Positions 60,201 through 63,200 of a stretch of DNA of 64,000 nucleotides are shown in pieces. This DNA is from Escherichia coli (GTDB taxonomy: Bacteria > Pseudomonadota > Gammaproteobacteria > Enterobacterales > Enterobacteriaceae). The position numbers are program-made. Every line of letters starts with the position of its first letter. The first letter of the stretch is position 1. The stretch lies in NCBI RefSeq assembly GCF_003018115.1, contig NZ_CP027457.1; one strand, 5' to 3'.

Positions 60201-63200
60201 AAAGGCGGGCGCTTAATTGTTGAAAAAGATGGGATTGCCGTCTTTGCCGCTATCGAAAAGGGAGGATTACTGGAGGTTAAAGACGGGGGATTAGCATTTG
60301 CGGTAGATCAGAAAGCAGGCGGTGCTATTAAAGCAAGCACGCGGGTCATGGAGGTATTCGGAACAAACCGTCTCGGTCAGTTCGAAATCAAGAATGGTAT
60401 TGCTAACAATATGCTGTTGGAAAACGGCGGAAGTTTGCGAGTTGAAGAAAATGACTTCGCTTATAATACTACTGTAGATAGTGGCGGCTTACTGGAGGTT
60501 ATGGATGGCGGGACTGCAACTGGCGTTGATAAAAAAGCAGGCGGAAAATTAATTGTCTCAACGAATGCGCTGGAAGTGAGTGGTACAAACAGTAAAGGCC
60601 AATTTAGTATAAAAGATGGTGTGTCAAAAAATTATGAACTGGATGATGGTTCTGGGCTTATTGTTATGGAGGACACGCAGGCCATTGACACTATCCTCGA
60701 TGAGCATGCCACTATGCAATCGCTGGGAAAGGATACTGGTACGAGAGTGCAGGCAAATGCGGTATATGATCTCGGTCGATCAGATCAGAATGGAAGTATA
60801 ACGTATTCCTCTAAAGCCATCTCTGAAAATATGGTTATCAACAATGGCCGCGCTAATGTCTGGGCTGGCACAATGGTTAACGTTTCAGTCAGAGGGAATG
60901 ATGGCATTCTTGAGGTCATGAAGCCGCAAATAAATTATGCACCCGCTATGTTGGTGGGTAAGGTAGTGGTTTCTGAGGGCGCTTCTTTTAGAACGCATGG
61001 TGCCGTGGATACCAGCAAAGCGGATGTTTCGCTCGAAAATAGCGCATGGACCATCATTGCCGATATCACTACGACGAACCAAAACACCCGCCTTAACTTA
61101 GCCAACCTTGCGATGTCTGGCGCAAATGTGATTATGATGGATGAGCCAGTGACTCGTTCATCTGTGACGGCAAGTGCGGAAAATTTCACTACGTTGACCA
61201 CCAATACCCTGTCGGGAAACGGCAATTTTTATATGCGTACCGATATGGCGAATCATCAGAGCGATCAGCTCAACGTCACCGGTCAGGCAACAGGTGATTT
61301 CAAAATATTCGTGACGGACACCGGTGCCAGCCCGGCAGCAGGAGATAGCCTTACACTGGTAACAACGGGCGGCGGTGATGCTGCATTTACGTTGGGCAAT
61401 GCCGGAGGCGTTGTTGATATCGGTACGTATGAATATACCTTGCTGGATAATGGCAACCATAGCTGGAGTTTGGCAGAGAATCGCGCGCAAATTACCCCTT
61501 CAACCACTGATGTGCTGAATATGGCGGCCGCACAACCGCTGGTATTTGATGCAGAACTGGACACCGTGCGTGAGCGTCTTGGTAGCGTAAAAGGCGTTAG
61601 TTACGATACGGCGATGTGGAGTTCGGCAATTAACACCCGCAACAACGTGACCACTGATGCGGGAGCTGGTTTTGAGCAAACATTGACGGGCCTGACGCTC
61701 GGTATCGATAGCCGTTTCTCCCGTGAAGAAAGCAGTACAATTCGCGGCTTGTTCTTTGGTTACTCTCATTCTGATATTGGTTTTGATCGCGGCGGAAAAG
61801 GTAATATCGATAGCTATACCCTGGGGGCTTATGCCGGTTGGGAGCATCAGAACGGTGCCTATGTTGATGGAGTGCTGAAAGTTGACCGTTTTGCCAACAC
61901 CATCCATGGCAAGATGAGTAATGGGGCAACAGCGTTTGGCGATTACAGTAGTAACGGCGCAGGTGCTCATGTCGAGAGCGGGTTCCGTTGGGTTGACGGA
62001 TTGTGGAGTGTTAGACCCTATCTCGCCTTTACCGGCTTTACCACAGATGGTCAGGACTACACGTTATCAAACGGCATGCGCGCGGATGTGGGAAATACCC
62101 GGATATTACGCGCTGAAGCGGGAACGGCGGTAAGCTATCACATGGACCTGCAAAACGGTACGACGCTGGAACCCTGGCTGAAAGCCGCCGTGCGTCAGGA
62201 ATACGCCGATTCTAACCAGGTGAAAGTTAATGACGATGGCAAATTTAATAATGATGTGGCTGGAACCCGTGGCGTTTATCAGGCTGGGATAAGGTCATCG
62301 TTTACCCCGACGTTAAGCGGTCATTTGTCAGTCAGCTATGGCAATGGCGCAGGGGTAGAATCGCCGTGGAATACCCAGGCTGGTGTGGTCTGGACGTTCT
62401 GATAACAGACAATAAACAGGCCGTGATGTGTCGCGGTCTGTTTATCGAATTAAATGCAGATATAAAAAAACCAACCTTTACGGTTGGTTTTTTTTGGGAT
62501 TTTTGGTCGCACGAGAGTAGTTTAATTGAACGTGTAACTTAATGATTTAAAAGAATGAGTCTGATTCAACTTTTAAGCCGTATAACCAAACGTATAGCTA
62601 AATTTATTTGCTGAAAAAATGTACAATTTAGAGTCAGATTTTCCCAGATGTTTAATTTATAAAACGAAGCTGGCGGCTGTTCTCTGATATGTGGATCCCC
62701 ATATCTGGAACCCTACCGGAATTTTTTTCCGGTTACCCTTTAATCAGGCTGGTGGGCTTTACCTGTTCGGTAGGTATGATCATTATGATCATACCTTTCG
62801 CCCCAATGGGAGGTAAAAGCGCCAACTGGACGGTTAAACCGTCTTTTTGTCACATCGTGTCACTGGTTGTCACTCTCCGTCACGATGTCCGCTCGCCTGG
62901 CTGTAAATCAAACTACGAAATTTTCGTAGTTGTGAGTAAGCCCCAAAATATGGGGATTACTCTTACTACCCAAACTACGGGTAGTTTCCGTAGTTTCATA
63001 GTCGAGTTGCAGATCTGCAACTCCCCCACCAGCCAGCGCAATTTTGCGCTTTGCTTTAAGTTCAGCGAGTTACAGCGCCGACTTCCTCAAATTGAGGTTG
63101 CCGGAAATATCAACCAGTTACGAGGCTCAAAATTGAGCCGCCTTTAAATCAACACGTTACCGCCGTAACCGCTCCGGCTTCTTCCAGTTGTACGTAATTT

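Follow-up and report, generated by a model that had tools for sequence, protein, structure and literature searches.

Bacterial interspersed mosaic elements (BIMEs) of the RIB/RIP class are known at the ends of chromosomal operons, and in these elements (BIME-1), a site for integration host factor (IHF) is reportedly flanked by repetitive extragenic palindromes (REPs). REP hairpins act as stabilizers of mRNA at its 3' end. Among mobile elements, P1 carries parS just after parB, and the cosB site of lambda pairs R sites with an IHF site. Phage-inducible chromosomal islands (PICIs), which are found widely in Escherichia coli as carriers of virulence and anti-phage genes, are known to carry three cis elements, namely, an attachment site (att), an origin (ori), and a cohesive-end site (cos). 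Here, we describe an array of tandem repeat units at the distal end of a PICI-type satellite in a 64,000-nucleotide (nt) stretch of E. coli DNA (assembly GCF_003018115.1, contig NZ_CP027457.1; "the window" denotes this whole 64-kb stretch). The array, in which palindromes of variable sequence alternate with matches to the IHF consensus, begins in the window at the 3' end of a conserved gene for a 93-amino-acid (93-aa) protein. It is a fourth conserved non-coding feature of PICIs, common to Rpp-type, capsid-forming, and capsid-fusion satellites. The PICI literature that we examined does not mention it, and a full-text search for the unit sequences returned nothing.

Like RIB/RIP elements, the array is extragenic, lies at the 3' end of a transcription unit, and combines, repeatedly, an IHF consensus with hairpin palindromes. 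Its palindromes, however, are not REPs and are free in sequence, and its units are direct tandem repeats that pair each IHF site with a single palindrome instead of two inverted REPs; moreover, the unit is confined to PICI satellites, whereas RIB/RIP elements are dispersed in the chromosome. With REP stabilizers, the array shares small GC-rich hairpins after a stop codon that lack a U-run, and as any stable stem would serve as a stabilizer, such a role would explain the conservation of structure only; yet, the REP consensus is absent and the symmetry extends to the very centre of many palindromes, which RNA would not need. The dyads also resemble P1 parB-parS, F sopC, and the lambda ori iterons, cis sites that consist of dyads, in some cases together with an IHF site, beside the gene for their binding protein; like these, the array dyads follow a small conserved gene directly and in tandem, with a period of 40-54 bp. 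Within each of those systems, in contrast, all repeats share one recognition sequence, which the array palindromes do not, and no partition or initiator protein is encoded beside the array.

Results

We found that two dyads near the end of the satellite form the cores of a repeat unit that stands there twice in tandem, consists of a variable hairpin and an IHF consensus, and has apparently not been described before. A sequence-only reading of the window had reported the pair as twin dyads and had overlooked both the IHF consensus after each dyad and the repeat-unit nature of the pair. The positions that it gave are exact: dyad 1 is CCTCAAATTGAGG at 63085-63097 (CCTCAAaTTGAGG; arms of 6 bp, or a 5-bp stem and 3-nt loop when folded), and dyad 2 is GGCTCAAAATTGAGCC at 63124-63139 (GGCTCAAaaTTGAGCC; arms of 7 bp, or a 6-bp stem and 4-nt loop when folded). 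Their centres, at 63091 and 63131.5, lie 40.5 bp apart, in line with the reported spacing of about 40 bp, and the pair does adjoin the end of the 93-aa open reading frame, with 17 nt between dyad 2 and the stop codon (63157-63159). The core dyad said to be common to both is real, but the two centres differ by one base (CAAATTG versus CAAAATTG). The pattern CTCAA-N0-3-TTGAG occurs three times in the window versus 0.22 expected, a count reached in none of 100 shuffles; its third match, at 36466, is unrelated to the dyads. Folded singly as DNA, the hairpins have modest energies of -2.5 kcal/mol (dyad 1) and -4.7 kcal/mol (dyad 2).

In the window, a unit is built from GTTAC..., a perfect palindrome, a TTCCGAAAAT-like stretch, and ATCAACnnGTTA. 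Repeat unit 1 (63069-63120, plus strand) reads GTTACAGCGCCGACTT, palindrome, TTGCCGGAAAT, ATCAACCAGTTA, contains the direct repeats D2, D6, and D10, and aligns gap-free with 27 homologous units of other satellites. Repeat unit 2 (63117-63159, plus strand) reads GTTACGA, palindrome, GCCTTTAA, ATCAACACGTTA, contains D6, and is shorter on its 5' side, which results in a 39-bp period, as is the spacing of D6; it is also present in another satellite locus, L004 (loci are given below by their L numbers). D6 itself is ATCAACnnGTTAC, found on the plus strand 10-11 nt after each dyad. As IHF consensus, we used the 13-bp WATCAANNNNTTR with an A/T-rich 5' flank. Exact matches lie on the plus strand at 63108-63120 (TATCAACCAGTTA, whose first base is 17 nt from the dyad 1 centre) and at 63147-63159 (AATCAACACGTTA, whose TTA is the 93-aa stop codon read on the opposite strand), preceded by GAAAT and TTTAA, respectively, and these two are among only five exact matches in the entire window. 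A similarly built third palindrome that the sequence-only reading had likewise overlooked (63035-63050, plus strand; AGCGCAAttTTGCGCT, then TTGCTTTAAG), which is terminator-like on the plus strand, represents the second module type of the array and is kept in L002, L003, L005, and L010. The divergence of the two units was too great for them to be detected by Tandem Repeats Finder in this region, and an Rfam scan gave no match in 62550-63460, even at E values up to 5.

The two parts of the unit are constrained in different ways, the core (TTCCGAAAAT-ATCAACnnGTTA, ~22 bp) in its sequence and the palindrome in its position and symmetry only. Ten E. coli genomes and the IMG/VR contigs with the core pattern contributed homologous regions, which gave 26 distinct array versions from 37 loci, 12 kb in total. 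Across these 26 regions, 52 exact IHF consensus matches lie on the plus strand and one on the minus strand, compared to an expectation of 0.18 per strand, and for 29 distinct dyads the distance from the dyad centre to the next IHF site is 16-18 nt. The palindrome slot, by contrast with this fixed core, is occupied by seven families (CCTCAAaTTGAGG, CAGCCgttGGCTG, TCCCCCAaTGGGGGA, TTCGCCgctGGCGAA, GGCTCAAaaTTGAGCC, AACGCAAttTTGCGTT, and TTCCACAGtCTGTGGAA) with at least 12 different sequences, and single arrays hold several unrelated ones. At the fixed position, 73% of the 52 distinct units have a perfect dyad whose arms reach 5 bp or more, versus 3% of shuffles. In an ungapped alignment of 28 units, 85.7% of the cells are paired, compared to only 28-56% when the register is slid by one to three columns; double-change cells number 33 versus 11.4 +/- 2.3 in shuffles and the covariation score is 0.482 versus 0.161 (each reached in 0 of 500 shuffles), figures that are upper estimates since the 28 units were partly picked for having a dyad. 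The 73% versus 3% count, which was not dyad-selected, agrees with them in direction. Compensatory types occur at four of the seven pairs (e.g., UA 13, GC 9, and CG 5 at one of them). The units preserve, at a set position, the symmetry of a dyad, or the potential to form a hairpin, and not a recognition sequence.

Among satellites, the array varies in the number, order, and identity of its units. Zero to six units were counted per array; they share one strand, and the 93-aa stop codon is at most ~520 nt away. In all versions, the tandem units measure 39-54 bp and read GTTACCGCGCCGACTT, palindrome, TTTCCGAAAAT, ATCAACnnGTTA; the second module, GCGCAATTTTGCGC then TTTGCTTTAAG, stands between them, as in the copy at 63035-63050 of the window. 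A unit core extends over the stop codon in 21 of the 26 variants, the TTA of the core being the complement of TAA. Both window dyads are kept in some orthologous elements: CCTCAAATTGAGG is the most frequent palindrome (10 of the 52 distinct units), and GGCTCAAAATTGAGCC was found again in L004 and L114, with a variant form in L006. Further arrangements were seen in individual loci. In L114 (11820-11990), the array contains TCCTCAAttTTGAGGA and GGCTCAAaaTTGAGCC, 54 bp apart. A PICI-like contig with a P4-type integrase and AlpA-like and Rha-like genes (L142, 3101-3224) has three GGCTCAAAATTGAGCC-like dyads at a 54-bp period, and a palindrome cluster beside a serine integrase (L052, 5180-5420) shares the centre CAAAATTG among members with differing arms.

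The array is confined to satellites of E. coli. Of 5,426 complete genomes of this species, 991 (about 18%) have a match to the 181-bp region, and most of these matches are partial, as expected because the array is mosaic; the same region gave no match in 50,697 GenBank phage genomes. In IMG/VR, the 17-nt core pattern occurs in PICI-sized contigs only, apart from a few chance matches inside genes, and in 100,044 species-representative genomes it has 25 single matches in unrelated taxa, about the chance number. With matches elsewhere at chance level, the unit is therefore private to strain-variable satellites of E. coli.

The window from ~62,520 onward is the distal end of a ~10-kb PICI-type satellite that is integrated at the tRNA-Pro gene proL, beside the autotransporter gene yejO (59811-62402). 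A copy of the 3' end of proL at 62502-62517 forms the att repeat, and between it and yejO lies the yejO terminator (62464-62494), whose symmetric A7...T7 structure could stop transcription from both sides. In a 99.4%-identical genome, the satellite encodes an integrase, an AlpA-type helix-turn-helix (HTH) protein, Icd-like and DUF4222 proteins, a RepA helicase, PerC, a ClpP-protease/major-capsid fusion, and the 93-aa protein; these genes share one strand, and beyond the last lie ~630 bp of non-coding DNA. That last gene (63157-63438, minus strand) is conserved and belongs to phrog_1561, a PHROG family without assigned function. Its product had no match in Pfam and no significant hit in sequence and fold searches of the Protein Data Bank, no relative was confirmed among the species-representative genomes, and its AlphaFold model is all-helical at low confidence (predicted local distance difference test score of 67).

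Linkage of the array to the 93-aa gene extends beyond this satellite. The two occur together in satellites at proL, ydgV/tqsA, clpS, phoQ, tRNA-Ile, and thiM, in which packaging genes differ. Nissle 1917 carries at proL a PICI of the EcCICFT073 type, which we assigned by its gene content and two exact cosN sites (PMC6092414), and this element has a homologous 93-aa gene with homologous DNA beyond it. In elements of this type, exact lambda cosN sites flank rppA, on the opposite side of the 93-aa gene from the array. Two IMG/VR contigs (L026 and L032) have an intact array and lack the 93-aa gene, and their homology ends exactly after GTTACCGCCG, which suggests that the unit boundary may be a recombination breakpoint. 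In L047 (963-1677) and L048 (1651-2365), cargo consisting of a PerC-family regulator gene (minus strand) and a 99-aa hypothetical gene (plus strand) lies between the array and att; the latter gene is convergent on the array, and this cargo is common to proL and clpS satellites.

Comparison with described elements excluded cos, ori, REP, and terminator signatures for the array. For REPs, the consensus GCCKGATGCGRCG..., with up to three mismatches, had no match in 62500-64000, and the same search recovered REP clusters elsewhere in the window as a positive control (10184-10385, 17149-17230, 33330-33484, 45228-45555, and 58691-58724). In position, the array does correspond to a BIME, as it is extragenic from the stop codon of the last gene and has its IHF site 16-18 nt from the palindrome centre. 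Satellite ori iterons, or a second site like crr of P4, were rejected given that the ori repeats (CTCCCCACT at L001 24340-24580; GTCTACC/GGTAGA at L002 13670-13980; PICI ori position from PMC6092414) are unrelated to the dyads. A degenerate cosN (GTTAC-AGCGCCGACTT) with cosB (TTTCCG plus IHF site) was rejected as well, since alignments were mostly at shuffle level: among 24 comparisons of the array with lambda cos, the window cos, cos1, and cos2, the highest z score was 3.1, within the shuffle maximum.

Integron attC sites resemble the array in keeping structure but not sequence next to a short core (some array cores, GTTAGGC, fit GTTRRRY) and in their mosaic, cargo-bearing setting. However, there is no integron integrase, the array units of 40-54 bp have no cassette between them, and integron-like cassettes were rejected because core sites do not flank the cargo genes and are absent farther than ~520 nt from the gene. 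A sigma-54-like -24/-12 match (TGGTGGGGGAGTTGCA, 63031-63016, minus strand) is present downstream of the dyads and IHF sites. A sigma-54 promoter with upstream activator sites and IHF was rejected, as the GG-N10-GC match is not conserved in L003 and L008; with the -24 GG or the spacing lost there, the match is probably due to chance.

The remainder of the satellite end carries further sites. A cos-like site occupies 63620-63665 on the minus strand, with cosQ GGGTCCT at 63659-63665 and a cosN variant, GGGCGGGCGGCG, at 63623-63634 (lambda counterpart, GGGCGGCGACCT), about 470-560 bp from the array; a lambda-type cosN with at most two mismatches was absent from the window satellite. Counted from the first cohesive-end base, the start of the 93-aa gene is 197 bp away, compared to bp 191 for lambda Nu1. 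The cos-like site recurs upstream of the capsid gene (L001 23740-23810), and the EcCICFT073-type element has a similar variant as well (L002 12890-12950). Within the non-coding DNA, four GTCAC motifs (62849, 62859, 62869, and 62879, within 62849-62883) follow one another at an exact 10-bp period on one helix face, in a block kept in L006, L019, and L047. A 25-bp perfect palindrome with two TGATCA/Dam sites (AGGTATGATCATtATGATCATACCT, 62772-62796) belongs to a family NNTCATwATGANN with variable outer arms, and a 20-bp perfect palindrome with a central GATC (GAGTTGCAGATCTGCAACTC, 63004-63023) is kept in L003, L005, L007, and L008. Between 62909 and 62996, AAACTACG occurs five times in both orientations (AACTACGAAAtTTTCGTAGTT; CCCAAACTACGGGTAGTTTCCGTAGTTT) and is kept across satellites with different integrases.

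Discussion

Unit structure, covariation, the enrichment and uniform orientation of the IHF consensus, and linkage to the 3' end of the 93-aa gene and not to att are established for the array; IHF binding, its transcription, and a benefit to the satellite are what we infer from these sequences. By analogy, the array may be a satellite-private counterpart of the RIB/RIP BIMEs at an operon 3' end, an explanation that we put forward as our best yet tentative one. IHF would bind each conserved core on the DNA and bend it sharply, and wherever transcription continued past the 93-aa gene, the RNA would contain a series of small GC-rich hairpins formed by the palindromes. Such a series could mark and protect the 3' end of the late operon, and the array could buffer the operon against convergent cargo or host transcription from beyond. 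A terminator scan found five hairpins versus 2.0 expected. In the terminal non-coding region, four terminator-like hairpins lie on the plus strand (62704, 62828, 62941, and 63035) and none on the minus strand; they suggest insulation from transcription entering from yejO or cargo, and fit an insulating role for this stretch.

Several observations weigh against this RIB/RIP-like reading. The prediction of IHF sites is a match to a 13-bp consensus only, and known REP/BIME sequence is absent from the array, so that the BIME analogy is a functional one. Units were first gathered via the anchor ATCAAC, so that conservation of the anchor is partly ascertainment; the 52-versus-1 count of IHF sites is free of this bias, yet the copies share ancestry. 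Five of the 26 variants (L005, L024, L027, L044, and L255) have no unit core at the stop codon, L255 lacks any strict core in the 242 nt available, and the reading does not account for the presence of up to six units per satellite. Furthermore, structure in RNA is not favored over structure in DNA. The regions do fold better than shuffles, a point in favor of the reading, but the fold z score is the same on both strands (mean of -2.7 over the 26 variants), the nine imperfect cells comprise two G.U wobbles per strand and five plain mismatches, the palindromes are nearly always perfect Watson-Crick, and many are symmetric down to a single central base (1-nt spacer), as an RNA hairpin does not need to be. 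With no strand bias in fold z or wobbles, selection for RNA over DNA structure is not indicated. The minus-strand RNA of the window folds at -50.3 kcal/mol (z score of -4.0) through a long helix that depends on G.U pairs, and this long-range helix is peculiar to the window variant.

The array could instead lack a function altogether and consist of tandem duplications of the gene's 3' junction, shuffled by recombination in a hypervariable satellite end, with the IHF match and palindromes merely carried along. This would accord with the unit number of zero to six and the mosaic order, with divergence right after ...GTTA into at least six alternatives, with the precise loss of the 93-aa gene at GTTACCGCCG in L026 and L032, and with the start of non-terminal units, GTTACCGC, which repeats the final codons of the gene. 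Drift, however, leaves unexplained the perfect palindromes at a fixed offset (73% versus 3%) and the compensatory changes (four of seven pairs), and it accounts neither for an exact 13-bp consensus retained in 52 copies of the same orientation nor for the presence of the array across satellite subfamilies in about 18% of complete E. coli genomes. We regard a functionless array as possible but rather unlikely.

We find it unlikely that the array is a cis-acting nucleoprotein site for transfer, in which IHF-bent cores would be bound by the 93-aa protein, terminase, Rpp, or another helper protein. Gene and array are adjacent whatever the packaging module, the core starts with TTTCCG, which recalls the R-site core CGTTTCC beside the IHF site I1 in the lambda sequence, and the 197-bp distance from the cos-like nick site to the start of the 93-aa gene is close to the position of lambda Nu1 (191). 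In the capsid-forming PICI EcCIEDL933, a mutant of the packaging-module hypothetical gene "1792", which may or may not be the 93-aa gene, is severely impaired in transfer (10.1101/2022.09.08.507074). The likeness to lambda cosB (R3-I1-R2-R1) and to PICI cos sites, i.e., an IHF site beside short protein-binding motifs in a cos-packaged element and the resemblance of TTTCCG to the R-site core, contrasts with the lack of significant similarity between the arrays and the cos sites of lambda or PICIs. The functional cosB of EcCICFT073, with an R3-PICI proposed at bp 48-65 and without I1, R2, and R1, adjoins cosN (PMC6739421, PMC9026076), whereas the array lies 0.5-1.3 kb away from cosN and is also found in satellites with different or variant cos sites. 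In addition, the 93-aa protein has no recognizable DNA-binding fold or family, and the unit number is not conserved.

A broader proposal would make the units and the 93-aa protein a new cis/trans module needed for satellite spread, with each unit as a structure-specific site for IHF and the small protein. The module could control packaging, read-through of the late operon into attP/int after excision, or recombinational turnover of the cargo end, and recognition by structure would leave the palindromes free to diversify. We consider this quite improbable.

Similarly improbable is a role of the two dyads in intrinsic termination or terminator-like insulation, acting on the late operon (minus strand) or on plus-strand transcription that enters the region. 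The sequence-only reading had offered a paired terminator or processing structure, of which the hairpins are backed by covariation, but the T-run of a terminator is absent on either strand. The position at the operon end, the four terminator-like plus-strand hairpins in the same non-coding region, and the TT(T) that follows every palindrome on the plus strand would favor termination. Against it, neither dyad was called by the terminator scan, the tails contain at most three T in eight on the plus strand (TTGCCGGA, GCCTTTAA) and zero to one on the minus strand (threshold, five or more), the stems are short, and the conserved IHF core would be left unexplained.

The operator pair for a dimeric HTH regulator that the sequence-only reading had preferred fared worse, as unrelated palindromes occupy the homologous position and there is no downstream gene or promoter. 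Perfect palindromes about four helical turns apart would suit such operators, or a "key ring" for helper-phage proteins such as lambdoid O initiators with their similar dyad iterons: iteron 3 of lambda ori, TCCCTCAAATTGGGGGA, resembles CCTCAAATTGAGG and TCCCCCAATGGGGGA, and CTCAAAATTGAG-core dyads recur twice, 54 bp apart, in L114 and three times at a 54-bp period in L142. The palindrome sequence, however, is not conserved between homologous units, and with seven families and unlike palindromes in one array, a single sequence-specific dimeric regulator is very unlikely; for such a regulator, the operator reading is already largely refuted. The array also stands after the last gene with no promoter-like site near 63085-63139, the only such site in 62400-64000 being at 62817-62788. 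As for helper phages, the 181-bp region has no match in the 50,697 phage genomes; in scans of IMG/VR viral contigs, GGCTCAAAATTGAGCC and TCCCCCAATGGGGGA were almost only single copies, and any in tandem were limited to arrays of PICI type or to short contigs; and the satellites' own Rep iterons are different sequences. Overall, we give operators or a key ring only a slight chance. That the IHF sites and dyads form an attP arm, an intasome for integration and excision, is highly improbable: although IHF sites are typical of attP arms and the array is in the non-coding end that adjoins attP after excision, it lies some 600 bp away from the att core (62502-62517; 0.5-1.3 kb away across satellites), is shared by six integration sites and hence different integrases, and is separated from att by cargo genes such as perC in L047 and L048 (1.3 kb).

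If the RIB/RIP-like reading holds, i.e., if the array is bound by IHF and shapes the 3' end of the operon, it would be the first BIME-like element that is private to a family of mobile elements, and it would provide a clean natural case of structure-only selection beside sequence-only selection. If the array were needed for transfer, it would offer a new handle on satellite packaging or regulation. Even if it were only a recombination scar, it would still be a sharp marker for finding and typing PICI satellites.

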